From the IMG/VR virus record IMGVR_UViG_3300029337_000010, positions 1 to 58,034 of that record: a stretch of 58,034 bases of DNA. One strand, written 5' to 3'. The translations under genes were made by a program, and so were the position numbers. Numbering within the stretch: position 1 is the stretch's first letter; the number at the start of each line of letters is the position of its first letter. The notes under the pieces were generated by a model. The model searched no databases. It saw nothing but the letters and a program-made list of their open reading frames with translations, and was not told the origin of the DNA. Below, one piece after another: positions 128 through 57,902 of this stretch. The DNA comes from a virus.

Positions 128-1330
128 TTACATCGATAGTGCTTTCGCAATGTATTCTTGCATCTCACTCTCTGTTTTATTATTAAAATAATAATGGTCA
201 AGCGTTGTTCTAATATCAGTATGACCCATTTGTGTTTTTATTACAGATTCTGGAACATTTCCATCTATAAGCTTTGTAGCATATGTCTTTCTCGCCTTAT
301 GAATTGATCGCTCACCAATTTTAACTTTATCGCAGATCACATATAAACGTCTTGTAAATGCTTGTCCTTTTATCCTTTTACCGTTTTTCATAAAAATATA
401 TTCTCCAAAAGGGTTAAGCATTTTTATTTTTCTCATAAGTTCATTGGTATCTTCGGTAATTATAACATCTCTAAATCCGGCATCGCTCTTTGGAAAATTC
501 TGAACATCAAACACATATTTGCCACTATCATCTCGGTATCGTATTTCTGTCTTTGATATATGTATCTTATTTTCTGCAATATCTGACCATGAAAGCGTGG
601 ATATTTCTCCAACCCTTAGTCCGGTTTTAAATGCCAAAATAATTCCAAGTTCAATCAATGTAGGCTGGTCTTCCATTATGAATTGTTCAATCAAAAGCTC
701 TTCATCCTTAGAAAAAACTAATTCGTTGTCAGACTTATGATTCCTTTTAAATGACTTCTCCGAAATTTCTAAATCACCCATGAAATTGGTTATGCTCAAG
801 CTAGTATAATGTTTTTTCTTTGCATATTTGAAAATTCCGTTAATCAATATCCGCATATCGGAGTACGCTTTCTGCGTAAGTTCCAGCTTTGAAATAGCTG
901 TTTTTATGAATGATTCCAATATTTCTTCGTCAATATACCGGATTTTTCTATTTGCAATCGGCAAATACTCATTTTCAAAAAATCTTTTAAAATTCGTTTC
1001 GTACTTGTCCTTTGTCTGCCTTGTTATTTCACCATATTCCAATTTTTCAGAAATCCAGCTAGAATATACTTGGCTGACTGTCGGTTCATCTTCCATGGCT
1101 TTATAAAACTTCACTATCTCGTTTTCTATCGCCTTTTCAGATGTTCTTTTTACAAGTTTTTTCCCTCTCTGGCTTTCTTCATCGGGCAAATATGTGTAAA
1201 ACTTACCGTCTTTTCCTTCCCAAATGCTATAATTGTGTTTTTCAATAAATTTCTTCCTTTCGTTCATCTCAATTTTTTTCTGAATGGTGTCTATGTCGAT
1301 AATACCATTTTCAATGGCAAAATTCAACAA
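128..1330 (-). CDS. int: Tyrosine recombinase / phage integrase
   Basis: 400-aa ORF. The C-terminal catalytic pattern is present: RVGEISTLSWSDI, HKARKTYATKL, GHTDIRTTLDHYY (R...HxxR...H...Y). It is adjacent to the att repeat. Confidence 0.92.
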   Translation of the reverse strand: MLNFAIENGIIDIDTIQKKIEMNERKKFIEKHNYSIWEGKDGKFYTYLPDEESQRGKKLVKRTSEKAIENEIVKFYKAMEDEPTVSQVYSSWISEKLEYGEITRQTKDKYETNFKRFFENEYLPIANRKIRYIDEEILESFIKTAISKLELTQKAYSDMRILINGIFKYAKKKHYTSLSITNFMGDLEISEKSFKRNHKSDNELVFSKDEELLIEQFIMEDQPTLIELGIILAFKTGLRVGEISTLSWSDIAENKIHISKTEIRYRDDSGKYVFDVQNFPKSDAGFRDVIITEDTNELMRKIKMLNPFGEYIFMKNGKRIKGQAFTRRLYVICDKVKIGERSIHKARKTYATKLIDGNVPESVIKTQMGHTDIRTTLDHYYFNNKTESEMQEYIAKALSM

Positions 1331-9469: not shown

Positions 9470-9781
9470 TCAATCGAATCGAGTTCCAAAAAGGACTGTG
9501 CATATATCTTTGAATTCATTTTCACGATCAGAAATTTGAACATCCAATTCATCGAGCCTATTAAGTAATGCTTTCTGGTATTCTTTTTCTGTAAAATCCG
9601 TATTGCGTTTTCTTCCCCTTGTTCTTATTGGAAGTTTTACATTTTCTCCGTTTTCCAATAAAATCCCAATAATTTTGCGCCTTGGGACGTCGTTTAGCTC
9701 CGCAAGGATCTCCAACTGTTCACCTTTATGCTTTGCATGTCGGTACCTGTTGCAAATTTCGCATTCGCCCATTTCCATCAT
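9470..9781 (-). CDS. Hypothetical protein (possible small DNA-binding protein)
   Basis: 103-aa ORF with a 4-nt overlap to the upstream gene. Confidence 0.5.
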   Translation of the reverse strand: MMEMGECEICNRYRHAKHKGEQLEILAELNDVPRRKIIGILLENGENVKLPIRTRGRKRNTDFTEKEYQKALLNRLDELDVQISDRENEFKDICTVLFGTRFD

Positions 9782-10479
9782 TTCTTATCACGCCTTTCCC
9801 TAACATTTGTTTCCAACAAAGTTTTTTCTAATTCATCATAGTCATAAGATCTCTGATAAAAGTTATTAAATTTGTTTTTTGATCTTGGGTTACTCTCTTT
9901 CTCCTGCTTCTCCCAACTCCTTAATGCGGCTTTCCAGTCGGTTATTATTTCTCCATTACGTTTCCAACCTATTGATTTGTAGTAATCAATAAATGATTCC
10001 GCGCTCACACCATTCTTCCTCTTACGGCAATAATCAGCCACTTCCGCCAATGACGGTATGCACGCTTCCACTTCTTTCGCCGGCGAGCTTCCTGCGCTCC
10101 TTATTGCATTCACTCCGAAAAAATTTTTTGAAGCATCAAATGTGTATGCGCCATTTCTTTTCGTATAAAGCATTGATTTTTCTTCTGCATAATTGGTTGG
10201 CTTATAACGGTCTTTTTGAATGCAGTTATGTAATTTCCAATGTTTTATGACAATAACATTAGATCCTGGAAAAGTAAGAACATAATGTTTGTCAATGAGA
10301 ATTTGCAAGTCTTCCTTTGAAGCCTGGCACTCTCTTACTGTTTTATTGGCGCAGTCAACAAAACCGTCGTCATCTGCCCGTATGCATAAATGAAAAAACA
10401 AACCCTGCGCTGTGAGCGGCATGTCAAGAAAAGCATCTGACGTCACTAAATCTATACGAAACATCCGCTTACTTGCCAT
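9778..10479 (-). CDS. Phage replisome organizer (DnaD-like) protein
   Basis: 233 aa. The N-terminal MFRIDLVTSDAFLDMPLTAQGLFFHLCIRADDDGF is typical of the replisome-organizer N domain. Confidence 0.75.
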   Translation of the reverse strand: MASKRMFRIDLVTSDAFLDMPLTAQGLFFHLCIRADDDGFVDCANKTVRECQASKEDLQILIDKHYVLTFPGSNVIVIKHWKLHNCIQKDRYKPTNYAEEKSMLYTKRNGAYTFDASKNFFGVNAIRSAGSSPAKEVEACIPSLAEVADYCRKRKNGVSAESFIDYYKSIGWKRNGEIITDWKAALRSWEKQEKESNPRSKNKFNNFYQRSYDYDELEKTLLETNVRERRDKK

Positions 10480-50442: not shown

Positions 50443-50845
50443 TTTTGTGCCTTGTATGTCAATAGTTTTTTGTGCCTTATCTCAGAATTTTTTCATCGTG
50501 TTCCAGTTTCTCCGCTACCGCTAACTTGATAAAATCGTTTGCGCTCTTATACCCCAGCCTTTCAATGCGTTCTTTGGTGCCTTTGGAAAACCTGCAATTA
50601 ACTCGCTCAAACTTATCGTCATACTTATATATTGCACGCCTTTTTGCTTCGCTTGTTTTATGTTCCATTTAACTTACCACCTTCCTATATTCTTTTTGTA
50701 TATTATATCCTTTTGTGCCTTGTATGTCAATATTGATTCGTTCTCTTGTTATGGTTTTTGTGCCTTGTATGTTTTTCACAATGTATTGCTATTTTTGTGC
50801 CTTGTATTTCGTGTATTATTACTATTGTTTTTGTGCCTTGCATAT
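50443..50845 (+). repeat. Six same-orientation iterons TTTTGTGCCTT(G/A)(T/C)AT.. flanking the RHH gene
   Basis: Copies start at 50443, 50468, 50711, 50756, 50793 and 50829. Copies 1 and 3 are identical over 22 bp. Confidence 0.9.
50477..50668 (-). CDS. Ribbon-helix-helix (Arc/CopG-type) regulator
   Basis: 63 aa. ERVNCRFSKGTKERIERLGYKSANDFIKLAV fits a beta strand followed by two helices. Confidence 0.6.
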   Translation of the reverse strand: MEHKTSEAKRRAIYKYDDKFERVNCRFSKGTKERIERLGYKSANDFIKLAVAEKLEHDEKILR

Positions 50846-50890
50846 ACTATAATACAACTATCAAATGAAGCACGAAAGAGAGGAACGAAC

Positions 50891-51226
50891 ATGAAAGATT
50901 ATACAAAGTTTATGAAATGGGCAGTTGTTTACATAACCGACAGAAAAGGACAGGACGACAGGAAGAGCAAAGTTAAAGTTGAAGCTCTTTTCAGTTCTCC
51001 AGTACAGGCAGAGGATAATTACATCATCCGCAACCAAGAAATTAAGCGATATATCCTCCATGTGGATGATTTAGAAGAGTTTGAAACAGTGTACAATCAG
51101 TTGCAAGATTTAAGGGAAAAATATGGAGAATATGCAATCTTCCACGTTAAAGACCTTAATCTTAGTTGTGATAAGGAAAACAAATGGCGCGAGATATTAA
51201 AAGTATATACAAGCATTGACTTTTAG
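50891..51226 (+). CDS. Hypothetical protein, first gene of the plus-strand operon
   Basis: ATG at 50891 preceded by GAAAGAGAGGAA. 111 aa. Confidence 0.55.
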   Translation: MKDYTKFMKWAVVYITDRKGQDDRKSKVKVEALFSSPVQAEDNYIIRNQEIKRYILHVDDLEEFETVYNQLQDLREKYGEYAIFHVKDLNLSCDKENKWREILKVYTSIDF

Positions 51227-51303
51227 CCGAAACGCTCCTATCTGGAGCGTCAGCCGCGGGATGGTCTCCCGGCTCTGATGATGGCAGACCAGAAAGGAAA
51301 TAC

Positions 51304-51540
51304 ATGCGGAAAGAATTTATAAAAAATGTTTTAGATGTTGAAGTAAATGGATTTGCTTGCAAAGTAAGGTACATTGTTAGAGCAATGTATAACGTTATCG
51401 ATGATGACGGTTTCGCAACGATTGAGCAAAAAGTCATTGAGGATGTGACGCTATCTGATCAGGAGATCGAAAAAGAGGGCGGAGCATCTAAGGTATTGGA
51501 AGATCTTAAAGAGTGCTATGCACCGTTGTGTTGCAATTAG
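51304..51540 (+). CDS. Hypothetical protein
   Basis: 78-aa ORF with RBS AGAAAGGAAA. Confidence 0.5.
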   Translation: MRKEFIKNVLDVEVNGFACKVRYIVRAMYNVIDDDGFATIEQKVIEDVTLSDQEIEKEGGASKVLEDLKECYAPLCCN

Positions 51541-51586
51541 TCAAAAGCAGCCCGCCCCGGAGGTTACGAGGGCAGAAAGGGAAAAT

Positions 51587-51748
51587 ATGAAGAACTGGAC
51601 AATAGAACAATTATATGATCTTTGGAGAGGTCGCGGATATACAAAAAAAGAAGCGCAGGCGAAAGCTGAAAAGGATTACAAAGAAATGCACCGGAAGAAA
51701 TCAGAAACAGAATGCCACCAGACCATGCAAGAAATGCTTTACAACTAA
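51587..51748 (+). CDS. Small hypothetical protein (53 aa)
   Basis: ATG preceded by GAAAGGGAAAA. Confidence 0.45.
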   Translation: MKNWTIEQLYDLWRGRGYTKKEAQAKAEKDYKEMHRKKSETECHQTMQEMLYN

Positions 51749-51834
51749 GTCGAAACCGCCCGCGCGGCGGTCTGCAGGAACTGCCCCACCTGCACCGATG
51801 AGACAGGGCGCACAATGAAAGGATGGTTGAGCAT

Positions 51835-52005
51835 ATGAACAAATTAGAAGAAGCCCAAAAAGCATTTTTGAAAGTTAGGAATTATTTATTGAAAAATCAA
51901 GAAGATTTTGCACTCGCAAGGGCATATAAAAAGCCTTGGAAGTGGTACATGGAACACACTGAGAAAGAAGCTATTGAGATTTTGAGAAAAGAAGTTAACG
52001 CATAG
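51835..52005 (+). CDS. Small hypothetical protein (56 aa)
   Basis: ATG preceded by AAAGGATGG. Confidence 0.45.
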   Translation: MNKLEEAQKAFLKVRNYLLKNQEDFALARAYKKPWKWYMEHTEKEAIEILRKEVNA

Positions 52006-52021
52006 AAAGGATGGTTAAATT

Positions 52022-52198
52022 ATGGAATTTACGGGAAACTTACAAACAAAAAAAGACGACGCAAAAAGCGCGTACATTAAAGCGCGGAGCGAATGGGCAG
52101 ACACCAGAACCGCCGAAAACATCAAAGGTGATCCCGAAAAGTGGCGCGCCCTTTGTGATCGGAAAATGGATTGTATGAGATTGGGTGTTATCATTTAA
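52022..52198 (+). CDS. Small hypothetical protein (58 aa, below the ORF-track cutoff)
   Basis: ATG preceded by AAAGGATGG. Translation begins MEFTGNLQTKKDDAKSAYIKARSEW... Confidence 0.45.
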   Translation: MEFTGNLQTKKDDAKSAYIKARSEWADTRTAENIKGDPEKWRALCDRKMDCMRLGVII

Positions 52199-52221
52199 GC
52201 AAAGTGCAGGCGGTGCAATGT

Positions 52222-52250
52222 TCCGGGGGAATTGCCCCCGGATTGCTTTT
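52222..52250 (+). terminator. Rho-independent terminator of the plus-strand operon
   Basis: TCCGGGGG-AATTG-CCCCCGGA followed by TTGCTTTTA. Confidence 0.8.
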
Positions 52251-52384
52251 ATCAATATGCCGTGGAGTACAGCACGCAAAAAAGCGTGCAAATATGCGTG
52301 TTATCATTAGCACTCTAGGGGATTTCCTGGCGTGCTGTGGATTTTCTGGTTGTACTTGTTGCCACAGAGCAGCCGCGGTGCACA

Positions 52385-52414
52385 TTGACATTTTGGCGAG
52401 TTTGTGCATATAAT
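52385..52414 (+). promoter_or_regulatory. Strong plus-strand promoter TTGACA-N18-TATAAT with a TTTGTGC motif over its -10
   Basis: TTGACA at 52385-52390 and TATAAT at 52409-52414. No credible ORF lies downstream. Confidence 0.65.
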
Positions 52415-52589
52415 GACTTGCAGGCATGTGCGCGCCTGTATAATTGCAATGTCATGTAGACGTTTGCTTTATTTGTTGTACTCATTTTGCGCATTTGTGC
52501 GGATGTTTCCGCGCCTGCATTATTTCAGCGCTTCCAAACGGGCGACGGCACATAGCAAGATCAAGTACGACCAGATCATGGATGAGTGC

Positions 52590-52830
52590 AATCTGAACTT
52601 GCACTTACAAAAAAGTTTTAAAAAAATTTTGCAAAAATCTGAACAAAATTCTCAAAATCTCAAAAACGGTTTTTTGTGCCGAAATCTGAACCTAGGGGGG
52701 TATCAAATTTTTTCCGAATATCTGGGCGAAAATTTCAAAAATTTTTTAAAAATTAAAAACCGAAAATCTTTTTCCAAATCTTAAGGTAGGGGGGATCGAA
52801 AATTTTTCTGAAAGTTTTCCGAAGTAAAAA
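52590..52830. repeat. AT-rich repeat region: AATCTGAAC x3 and TAGGGGGG(T)ATC..TTTTT(C)CxGAA x2
   Basis: AATCTGAAC occurs near 52592, 52637 and 52681. TAGGGGGG occurs near 52694 and 52787. TTTTTTGTGCC occurs at about 52664. Confidence 0.7.
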
Positions 52831-52941
52831 GCAAAGCTTTTGCAGTATAATCGCTTTTGTTTAATTCATCTATCAATTTCTCTCTTGTCATCCCAGGGTT
52901 TGTCTTCTGAACGTAATGAAGTAAATCGTCTATTTTGTCCA

Positions 52942-53262
52942 CTATGCCGCCCTCCAATCAATGTTTGCCATCAAATCATCCAGCAAATAAATCAAATCTG
53001 CCCCATACAGGCTTATCCAGTCCGCGAGATACTCTTCCTGCTCAATCGGCATATGAATGTTATAGGAAAAACAAAAACAATGGCAAAGCTCATGAGCCAG
53101 TATTTTGCGCAAATAACCATTTTTCGGTTTATCTGAAACATATATAGCCCTGTCGTTCCAATCTGTCACGGCAAGGCTGGTAGAGCTATCAGAGCGCATC
53201 AGCTTGCTGCTTGCACTGTGAACAAATTCTATTTTCCATTCAATACCATTTATCAAAAACAT
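52942..53262 (-). CDS. HExxH zinc metalloprotease (ImmA/IrrE- or SprT-like)
   Basis: 106 aa with the motif ILAHELCHCF. Confidence 0.65.
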   Translation of the reverse strand: MFLINGIEWKIEFVHSASSKLMRSDSSTSLAVTDWNDRAIYVSDKPKNGYLRKILAHELCHCFCFSYNIHMPIEQEEYLADWISLYGADLIYLLDDLMANIDWRAA

Positions 53263-53271
53263 ATTTTACCT

Positions 53272-53314
53272 CCAAAAAAAAGAAACCACCAGCCAAATAT
53301 CAGCTAGTGGTTTC
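53272..53314 (-). terminator. Hairpin terminator between the Rha and protease genes
   Basis: GAAACCAC-N17-GTGGTTTC followed by T8 on the minus strand, then immediately the GGAGG of the next gene. Confidence 0.65.
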
Positions 53315-53337
53315 TAAATTCATGCTTATTTTACCTT

Positions 53338-53976
53338 TTATTCTTCAATAAGTAGGTAATTAATGTATCTTGTCGCCGTATCGTTGAGGTCTCTATTGAA
53401 ATCAAGCAGATCAAGAGCGTATTCCGGTGGATATCCATAACTGGCGTAATATGCCTTTTCGATTGCGCGTAAGTTGTGCAGATCCGATAATTCCACTAGA
53501 ATCTTGTGATATAAAAATTTTCGAGTCCAACCAAACCGTTCTAGGATTATACTTAACTTCCAGTTGTTCTTTGAAAACCATGTTTCCGTTTCATGTTTCC
53601 ATCGAATCTCCCAGTGCTCAAACGGGTCTTTCTCCGTAATTGCAGGCTGCGGTTTTTTCAGCGCTTGTTCCATGTCGTGAAAGCGATTGATGTATTGAGC
53701 TGTGAAAGCCGTTCCCTTTGCTCCGGTCAGCTTGTGGGCGATAAATTCGCAACCTTTCTTGGTAATGTCGTAGCATGGACAACTTTTTTTCTGCTCTGTA
53801 CAATATGTGCTTTCTATGAAGAAATCGGAAAAGTCAATATTTACTTCTCCTAATTGCTTACAGTATCGCCGGATATCTTTTAATAAATTGGCGTGTGTCT
53901 TTCCAACCATTTCCGCGACTTCCATACTGGTTAGAGTTTGTTCTAATTGCTTCATCTGAATATCATTCATCAGCAA
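53338..53976 (-). CDS. Rha-family phage regulatory protein
   Basis: 212 aa. TSMEVAEMVGKTHANLLKDIRRY...ITKKGCEFIAHKLTGAKGTAFTAQYINRFHDME matches the Rha N-domain pattern. Confidence 0.8.
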   Translation of the reverse strand: MLMNDIQMKQLEQTLTSMEVAEMVGKTHANLLKDIRRYCKQLGEVNIDFSDFFIESTYCTEQKKSCPCYDITKKGCEFIAHKLTGAKGTAFTAQYINRFHDMEQALKKPQPAITEKDPFEHWEIRWKHETETWFSKNNWKLSIILERFGWTRKFLYHKILVELSDLHNLRAIEKAYYASYGYPPEYALDLLDFNRDLNDTATRYINYLLIEE

Positions 53977-53987
53977 ATCCCCCTCTC

Positions 53988-57878: not shown

Positions 57879-57902
57879 GTGTTACCTTTGGTGTTACCTT
57901 TG
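57879..57902. promoter_or_regulatory. Tandem GTGTTACCTTTG x2, candidate integrase arm-type sites (P arm)
   Basis: A perfect 12-mer duplicated head to tail. It has the same 9-mer core as 108-126. Confidence 0.55.

Follow-up and report, generated by a model that had tools for sequence, protein, structure and literature searches.

A promoter-bearing, gene-free accessory cassette in a cargo slot between two convergent units of a temperate phage genome

The cargo slot and its promoter

The window analysed here is the whole of a complete IMG/VR virus record (IMGVR_UViG_3300029337_000010; 58,034 bp), which is a temperate siphovirus-like phage of gut bacteria, with Lachnospiraceae-type Firmicutes as host group. 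Nearly all of its genes lie on the minus strand, apart from a short plus-strand island at ~50888-52198, and our subject is the gap in which this island faces the minus-strand unit of a Rha-family protein, a small metalloprotease and an open reading frame (ORF) of 58 amino acids (aa) (Table 1). Between these two convergent units lie a consensus promoter directed at the Rha unit, a GC-richer segment downstream of it and a field rich in A and T. Judged by what relatives carry in its place, the segment 52255-52750 is an accessory, swappable and gene-free cassette of the moron type, lodged in a cargo slot between two borders.

A search with the Rha protein yielded 80 related IMG/VR loci, to which exact DNA patterns added more, and in one phage lineage the region is present on ~60 contigs, with an identity of 84-95%. 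The analyses each used 23-30 distinct sequences: nucleotide diversity (pi) was tabulated from one alignment of 23 distinct sequences covering 52340-53980, and RNA structure was examined in an alignment of 29 sequences with a mean column identity of 94%.

That the promoter ranks with the best in the window, as a preliminary description of this DNA had claimed, is borne out, as the site is one of two in the whole 58,034-bp genome that match the consensus perfectly (52385, plus strand; 50730, minus strand), compared to 0.05 expected per Markov-1 genome. Both hexamers are essentially invariant among 23-29 distinct relatives, one class of variants carrying TTGACT, and among the 23 aligned sequences the diversity is 0.014 in the -35 hexamer, 0.0 in the -10 hexamer and 0.10 in the spacer, which drifts except for an invariant TTGTGC directly upstream of the -10 hexamer. 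Hexamers that stay fixed while the spacer drifts are, at the level of sequence, what is classically expected of a working promoter, and we infer that it fires, the transcript start predicted from its position being ~52421. Control by a repressor is possible; the 17-mer operator of an array at 50443-50845 has no match within 3 mismatches at this promoter, and TTTGTGC is not enriched genome-wide (20 found, 14.7 expected). The array comprises 5-6 copies of TTTTGTGCCTTGTATGT around a small RHH gene (50477-50668), and the copies overlap two consensus minus-strand promoters at 50730-50702 and 50462-50434.

The sole long frame downstream of the promoter, 52404..52784 (126 aa, GTG start), is not a gene by the pattern of change in its relatives, which upholds the earlier statement that no plausible ORF follows the promoter. 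Its start codon lies upstream of the predicted transcript start, and in relatives the frame is affected by indels of 2 nt (52437) and 1 nt (52548) as well as by a deletion of 9 nt. The 69-codon tail that begins at the ATG at 52578 and runs through the A/T field is interrupted by stops or frameshifts in 11 of 30 variants, one class of which is found on 14 contigs, and its ATG is lost in ~8 of the 30. Variable columns show no bias by codon position, either in the field (26/22/28) or in the GC-richer 5' part (16/15/11), and a conserved small protein, an outcome that the preliminary description had named, is not supported here.

Selection appears to act on the region at the nucleotide level. The third codon positions of three neighbouring genes have a diversity of 0.11-0.18, and two stretches evolve 2-3 times more slowly than these synonymous sites, namely the first ~115 nt after the promoter (52415-52530) and the A/T field (0.053 over 52607-52780). 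The 115-nt block is also ~3 times slower than the adjacent non-coding segments, among them the next 55 nt (52531-52583), a linker whose diversity, like that of the block, is given in Table 1. Such an alternation of constrained and free blocks on a 50-100-nt scale argues against recent spread of the cassette as the only cause of its low diversity.

Table 1. Coordinates of the slot, its modules and its borders (pi, nucleotide diversity; dG, predicted folding energy; a point marks features without strand)
Feature	Position	Strand	Remarks
Tyrosine integrase	128-1330		Adjoins 75-bp terminal repeat
Intrinsic terminator closing the plus-strand accessory island; left border of slot	52222..52242	+	8-bp stem with 7 GC pairs, then T-run
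Variable spacer upstream of promoter; insertion point for extra cargo in relatives	52255..52384	.	pi 0.15, neutral-like; 34-nt indels
Sigma-70/SigA-type consensus promoter, TTGACA-N18-TATAAT	52385..52414	+	12/12 match
Conserved non-coding 5' domain (part A)	52415..52530	+	pi 0.042; 2-nt indel; no codon-position bias
Stem-loop at predicted transcript 5' end	52418..52444	+	7-9 bp stem, constant 8-nt loop; includes second TATAAT
Fast-evolving middle (part B)	52531..52583	+	pi 0.13; 1-nt indel; 3-nt and 9-nt deletions, one relative each
Hairpin GAGUGCAA-loop-UUGCACUU, first AATCTGAAC in loop	52584..52608	+	dG ~-9.5
Six A-tracts in helical phase	52609..52666	.	Starts 52609, 52620, 52633, 52645, 52654, 52662; mean spacing 10.6 bp
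Core unit 1, (C)GAAATCT-N7-GGGGGG-TATCAAATTTTTTCCGAAT-N-GGGCGAAAATTT-AAAAA	52679..52745	.	pi 0.03-0.04
Core unit 2, degenerate second copy (CGAAAATCT...TAGGGGGGATCGAAAATTTTTCTGAA...TTCCGAAG)	52760..52824	.	Direct repeats
58-aa ORF, final gene of the Rha/small metalloprotease unit; right border of slot	52781..52957	-	
106-aa HExxH protein (small metalloprotease)	52942-53262	-	Annotation
Rha-family protein	53338-53976	-	Annotation

The GC-richer part and the A/T field

Two sorts of pairing had been noticed in the GC-richer part, and only the local one has some support. The CAGGC/GCCTG stem-loop at the predicted 5' end of the transcript folds in 25 of the 29 variants with a mean dG of -8.6 as plus-strand and -6.5 as minus-strand RNA, 14 of the variants being more stable as plus-strand RNA owing to G-U pairs, and a C-G to U-A change in it co-occurs with a 2-nt TG indel. 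The long-range pairing of TGCAGGC (52419) with GCCTGCA (52513) is not supported, as changes in one arm are left uncompensated. Another long-range helix, GGCATGTGC/GCACATAGC, which was proposed by RNAalifold, was rejected on account of four uncompensated changes. Part A contains in addition a direct repeat (CGCGCCTGTATAATTGCA / CGCGCCTGCATTATTTCA). The hairpin at 52584..52608 has undergone one compensatory change from C-G to A-U and several changes from U-A to U-G, with mismatches in 4 variants. It is not followed by a U-tract and is not a canonical terminator; it may be involved in protecting or processing the 3' end. A profile of the GC-rich part, searched with nhmmer, found no match outside its own lineage, the type B and type C loci of other relatives included.

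The A/T field is indeed rich in A+T (73% over 52607-52780) and yet it ranks only sixth among the 200-bp windows of the genome. The short repeats reported for it are present: AATCTGAAC is found in exact form at 52590, 52636 and 52683, the copies being 46 and 47 bp apart where ~45 had been given, and has one other exact copy in the genome, and two TAGGGGGG(T)ATC...TTTTT.C.GAA units at ~52693 and ~52788 stand 95 bp apart. In most relatives the third of the 9-mers reads AATCTGACC. Of the phasing that had been ascribed to the field, the left part holds, where six A-tracts follow one another in phase and form the sole chain of more than 4 in the genome, the maximum in 200 Markov-1 genomes being 4. 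It is the strand-specific chain test that detects this array, which was missed by a metric that mixes A- and T-tracts. Tandem Repeats Finder returns periods of 11-12 in the array, relatives conserve it, and 52609-52666 is predicted to be intrinsically curved DNA. A unit of ~45-65 nt is repeated in the window in two copies. The second copy (core unit 2) extends over the final 14 codons and the stop codon of the 58-aa ORF, and no other part of the field is found in every relative type of the lineage, including the deletion variants G012 and L040 described below. A perfect complementarity of 15 nt between 52650-52664 in the field (TTCTCAAAATCTCAA) and 51974-51988, within the coding sequence of a 60-aa gene of the plus island, is possibly due to chance in low-complexity sequence.

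A profile of the field matches ~120 nt (window ~52623-52742) with E 1e-6 to 2.5e-8 in a second prophage lineage that consists of 18 IMG/VR contigs and a Lachnospira intestinalis prophage, and whose Rha is only 53% identical. The core shared by the two lineages reads GAAA(A)TCT-N6-7-GGGGGG-N3-4-AAA(A)TTTTT(T)CCGAAT-N-G(G/A)GCGAAAAT(T/G)T and continues into an A-run. The second lineage has this core 3' of a plus-oriented zinc-ribbon gene and outside the minus-strand operon, directly before a bidirectional terminator (dG -13.4, z -2.4) that shows a compensatory change of CTGC/GCAG to CCGC/GCGG. A blastn search of GenBank phages in distant mode gave no match, nor did an exact field pattern match any of the GTDB genomes. 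On this distribution the field reads as an older module in its own right, separable from the promoter cassette, and the view of promoter, GC-rich part and A/T field as one unit, taken in the preliminary description, gives way to one of two separable modules. The field may be a curved-DNA or protein-binding site, or else the A-rich 3' part of plus-strand transcripts.

Variants of the slot and the surrounding genome

Among the loci fetched, the sole empty site is that of G012 (59,141 bp, direct terminal repeats, 100% complete), in which the terminator of the plus island is joined directly to ~52752. This relative is without 52255-52750, and with it without the left 150 bp of the field, and it keeps all the neighbouring genes. 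L040 is without 52577-52775 and retains the promoter and the GC-rich part; by inference both G012 and L040 are viable. Additional cargo is found as well. Relatives of the L020 type carry an extra 123-aa gene ahead of the promoter, and L038 (5880-6560) and L027 (7440-8110) carry two small genes for proteins of ~90 aa apiece. The second gene has a TTGACA-N17-TATTAT promoter, a GGGGGG ribosome-binding site and a terminator of its own, after which the A/T field resumes from 52594. L017 (7430-7960), which shares the 52594 breakpoint with the L038 type, carries this cassette as a pseudogenised moron from which an internal part is deleted. As the breakpoints (52251, 52339, 52594, 52576/52776, 52752 and 52824) are scattered, no site-specific recombination is indicated.

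An unrelated cassette, type B, occupies the slot in L052 (7930-8420) and ~30 others, all of which lack the A/T field entirely. Here a TTGACA-N17-TATAAT promoter with invariant hexamers and a hypervariable spacer converges on a DUF4417 gene and is followed by ~480 nt without a conserved frame, in which three alternative GC-rich middles are combined with an A/T-rich tail. Three compensatory pairs are seen on its plus strand and yet the minus strand has the lower consensus energy; the type B set is better diverged than the window's own cassette for testing RNA structure. As two unrelated cassettes at this site have each acquired or retained a strong rightward promoter ahead of non-coding sequence, it is reasonable that the transcription unit itself is the functional cargo, and this is our main argument.

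The coupling of the field to replication was assessed with the DnaD-like gene, the only recognisable replication organiser. Field and gene are both present in G001 and G002. G006 (59,984 bp, 100% complete) and G007 (94%) contain both field and promoter cassette without any DnaD-like homologue at E<=0.01, and G012 has the gene and matches only the last 78 bp of the region query. As the field is uncoupled from this gene and is largely absent from G012 and mostly deleted in L040, it is neither linked to the replication module nor indispensable.

As for the remainder of the genome, the annotated genes of replication and recombination are the DnaD-like loader (9778-10479), RecT, an SbcC-like protein and SSB, and the annotation further includes an Ant-type antirepressor, the terminase large subunit, the portal, a weak terS match and an HNH protein. 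In a protein search of GTDB genomes, the named sequences nearest to Rha reside in prophages of Lachnospira intestinalis and a Clostridiales bacterium, both of them distant. A strong terminator with a 16-bp stem at 53281-53315 on the minus strand lies between the Rha gene and the small metalloprotease gene, so that transcription of the protease gene and the 58-aa ORF must depend on read-through or on a separate promoter. The 58-aa protein has a conserved core with third-position bias (pi 0.056/0.014/0.155 by codon position) and a C-terminal tail that differs in type B and type C relatives. At the left border of the slot, the terminator at 52222..52242 varies in its loop among relatives and preserves its stem. 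Within the plus island, a type II hammerhead ribozyme (Rfam RF02276; 67.6 bits, gathering score 37) is found at 51225-51293 on the plus strand between two genes, and blast matches to 51225-51300 place it at the same position in many relatives.

An exact 75-bp repeat containing a tRNA 3' half, at 1-75 and 57960-58034, is flanked by four GTGTTACCT repeats (~108-127 and ~57880-57905). The contigs of many relatives end at the point of this repeat, which looks like attP with arm-type sites, and it is conceivable that the 'direct terminal repeats' of the record are prophage att copies and not virion ends. Between the HNH gene and the putative terS lies a gene-free gap of 390 bp (48984-49375). A 200-bp stretch within it (49157-49356, 77% A+T) shares first place for A/T-richness in the genome, and the gap is a candidate cos region.

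Interpretation and comparison with known systems

Based on these data we propose, with moderate confidence, that the slot of this phage holds a promoter-driven accessory non-coding unit whose product is most likely a regulatory RNA converging on the Rha/protease operon. The promoter would start a transcript at ~52421 that consists of the 5'-terminal stem-loop (52418-52444), a constrained domain of ~110 nt, a freely evolving linker and the hairpin at 52584-52608. As no intrinsic terminator is encountered, the polymerase would continue through the curved and unstructured A/T-rich field and enter the 58-aa/protease/Rha unit in antisense orientation. The product would thus be a regulatory non-coding RNA expressed from the prophage, ~190 nt in length if trimmed to the hairpin and at least 400 nt if not, and it could act in cis, by convergent transcription or antisense pairing on an antirepressor-type operon, in trans on other targets, or both. 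Of the roles suggested in the preliminary description, that of a regulatory or antisense RNA fits best with the conserved hexamers, the conserved 5' region, the 5' hairpin that favours the plus strand and the convergent geometry; its RNA structure fares less well, as the covariation is marginal.

Several results weigh against this proposal. Folding of the 192 nt from the predicted start as a single sequence is no better than that of shuffles (z -1.3 plus, -1.1 minus), and in the 29-sequence alignment, whose sequences are too alike for a firm covariation test, the tested helices are 97.8% paired with one pair changed on both sides, a covariation score that 20 of 500 shuffles reached. A search of Rfam with 52150-52950 returned no family match for the region, either at the gathering threshold or at E<=10, and among antisense targets of >=13 nt elsewhere in the phage none is convincing. 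The lack of an intrinsic plus-strand terminator between the promoter and the convergent genes (none before 52781) leaves the 3' end undefined. In addition, the terminator of the L038-type cassettes separates the promoter-driven unit from the field, so the field cannot depend on that transcript, and since the relatives are only 5-15% diverged, the low diversity could in part reflect recent spread of the cassette.

A different explanation, doubtful and yet one that deserves attention, is that the A/T field acts mainly as DNA, as a curved and repeat-bearing platform for protein binding or as an insulator between the convergent units, the promoter cassette being merely adjacent to it; as far as the promoter part is concerned, this is compatible with our proposal. 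It would account for six phased A-tracts that are unique in the genome, for the clustering of the CGAAAATYT and AAATCT..GGGGGG..AAATTTTT..CCGAA motifs, for RNA of either strand that is no more folded than shuffles (z -0.16 minus, +1.45 plus), for the position of the field after the terminator in L038-type relatives, and for the conservation of a 120-nt core just before a bidirectional terminator in a distant lineage. It is harder to reconcile with the finding that Pfam and PHROGs searches of the neighbouring proteins gave no DNA-binding candidate for the field, that no gene co-varies with it (G012 has the neighbouring genes without the left 150 bp), that type B relatives do without it, and that its motifs are short and of low complexity, CGAAAATYT not being enriched genome-wide. 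The promoter and what follows could also be functionless relics of a protein-coding cassette, a decaying moron, as the slot holds promoter-gene-terminator morons in relatives, one of them internally deleted in L017, one frame remains uninterrupted between the start site and 52612 in 21 of 29 variants, and the cassette is dispensable in G012. We consider this improbable, as invariant hexamers and a slowly evolving 115-nt block are not expected of a relic, there is no ribosome-binding site or codon-position bias, and the match to PHROGs is only marginal (E 0.0066). Very improbable is a small protein gene, either the whole 126-aa frame or its 69-aa tail; an open frame does span the A/T field and gene callers would probably call it, and yet the position of the start codon, the broken frames, the lost ATG and the even spread of substitutions are all as described above.

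The preliminary description had also considered an origin of replication with iterons and an unwinding element, which is weakened by the uncoupling of field and DnaD-like gene in both directions. To an origin, be it an iteron origin with a phage initiator or one primed by transcription through an R-loop at the A/T-rich region, we give little credence. It would be suited by a strong promoter that precedes a field of 73% A+T in which direct repeats, curvature and two invariant plus-strand G6 runs are present, type B repeats the order of promoter, GC-rich and A/T-rich sequence in unrelated DNA, and an initiator-free R-loop origin is untouched by the coupling test. Against it stand the relatives that have field without gene (G006 and G007), gene without 52255-52750 (G012) or a deletion of 52577-52775 (L040), the location of the field in the accessory region >40 kb from the replication genes, and its sixth place in A/T-richness. 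As for iterons, the repeats are degenerate and irregularly spaced: the three 9-mers (46-47 bp apart) and the two ~45-nt units (95 bp apart) have flanks that are <70% alike, and the third 9-mer differs in most relatives. Hardly credible, finally, is an attachment site, a cos/pac site or a type III antitoxin-like repeat RNA, which A/T-rich bent DNA with short direct repeats might call to mind, the ~46-nt spacing of AATCTGAAC recalling antitoxin repeat lengths. The element is absent from the complete relative G012; the attP reading falls because the attachment site is at the genome ends beside the integrase, and with it, the breakpoints being scattered, the packaging or recombination role suggested earlier loses ground; the HNH and terS genes are 3.4 kb away with a 390-bp gap of their own. 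For an antitoxin, Tandem Repeats Finder gives periods of only 8-12 nt, the ~46-nt units are <70% alike, no toxin gene and no plus-strand gene follows downstream, Rfam has no ToxI match, and no look-alike outside a prophage context was found in the two Lachnospiraceae-type genomes reached.

An unlikely but more far-reaching thought is that the slot encodes a two-part family of phage RNAs in Lachnospiraceae-type temperate phages, with a swappable GC-rich domain (type A or the unrelated type B) and an unstructured A-rich 3' domain, the core of which would be AAATCT-N7-GGGGGG-N-AAATTTTTTCCGAAT-N-GCGAAAATTT. Such an RNA might act on a factor of the host or of defence, either by regulating it or as its decoy, or its G6 runs might prime an initiator-independent (R-loop) auxiliary origin, and if this were true it would be a new kind of phage RNA element. 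The regulatory RNA that we prefer makes the finding one of an ordinary kind, a phage accessory unit. Even so, the non-coding cargo of accessory regions in gut phages is almost unstudied, and the slot offers a well-defined case in which the natural variants (empty site, field-only, promoter-only and protein-coding replacements) amount to a ready deletion series, next to a curved A/T module that would predate the phage lineage. Were the RNA to be expressed in lysogens, regulation of the Rha/antirepressor-type unit, and hence of the stability of lysogeny, would be a candidate role for it, as would regulation of genes of the Lachnospiraceae host.

Curved DNA with phased A-tracts is known from origins, from pac regions and from the sequence ahead of promoters. 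The array of the slot resembles such DNA in its six tracts of A4-7, spaced 10.6 bp on average and conserved in relatives, and differs from it in that it lies 3' of the only strong promoter and that no function in a promoter, an origin or packaging can be attributed to it. With the transcription-activated or R-loop origins (T4 oriF/oriG, the T7 primary origin and ColE1 RNA II) the slot shares a promoter followed by an easily unwound A/T-rich region and G-runs on the RNA-like strand, the G6 runs being on the non-template strand as in ColE1, T4 oriF and mitochondrial CSBII. Unlike these origins, the element is dispensable, uncoupled from replication genes and located in an accessory region, with ~190 nt from promoter to field.

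Closer parallels are found among the antisense RNAs of temperate phages. The sar RNA of P22 is antisense to the antirepressor mRNA. Prophages are known to express antisense and other non-coding RNAs such as STnc6030 of the Salmonella prophage BTP1 and OOP of lambda, which is antisense to the 3' end of cII (PMC7067206). Like OOP, STnc6030 and sar, the unit described here is a short non-coding one of a temperate phage, with its own constitutive-looking promoter opposed to a regulatory operon, in this case one of the Rha/antirepressor type. It differs from them in host group, being from Lachnospiraceae-type Firmicutes, in lacking a terminator that would define the RNA, and in that its promoter is ~360 nt from the nearest convergent stop codon, so that antisense overlap would come about only if the A/T field is read through. 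Morons are transcription units in their own right, from promoter to terminator, that are inserted between phage genes (PMC3594210). The cassette is like them in having an autonomous strong promoter between two operons, in being present or absent in syntenic relatives, and in being replaceable and dispensable. Despite this likeness it is without a protein gene and a terminator of its own, and the cargo that it carries is constrained non-coding sequence.

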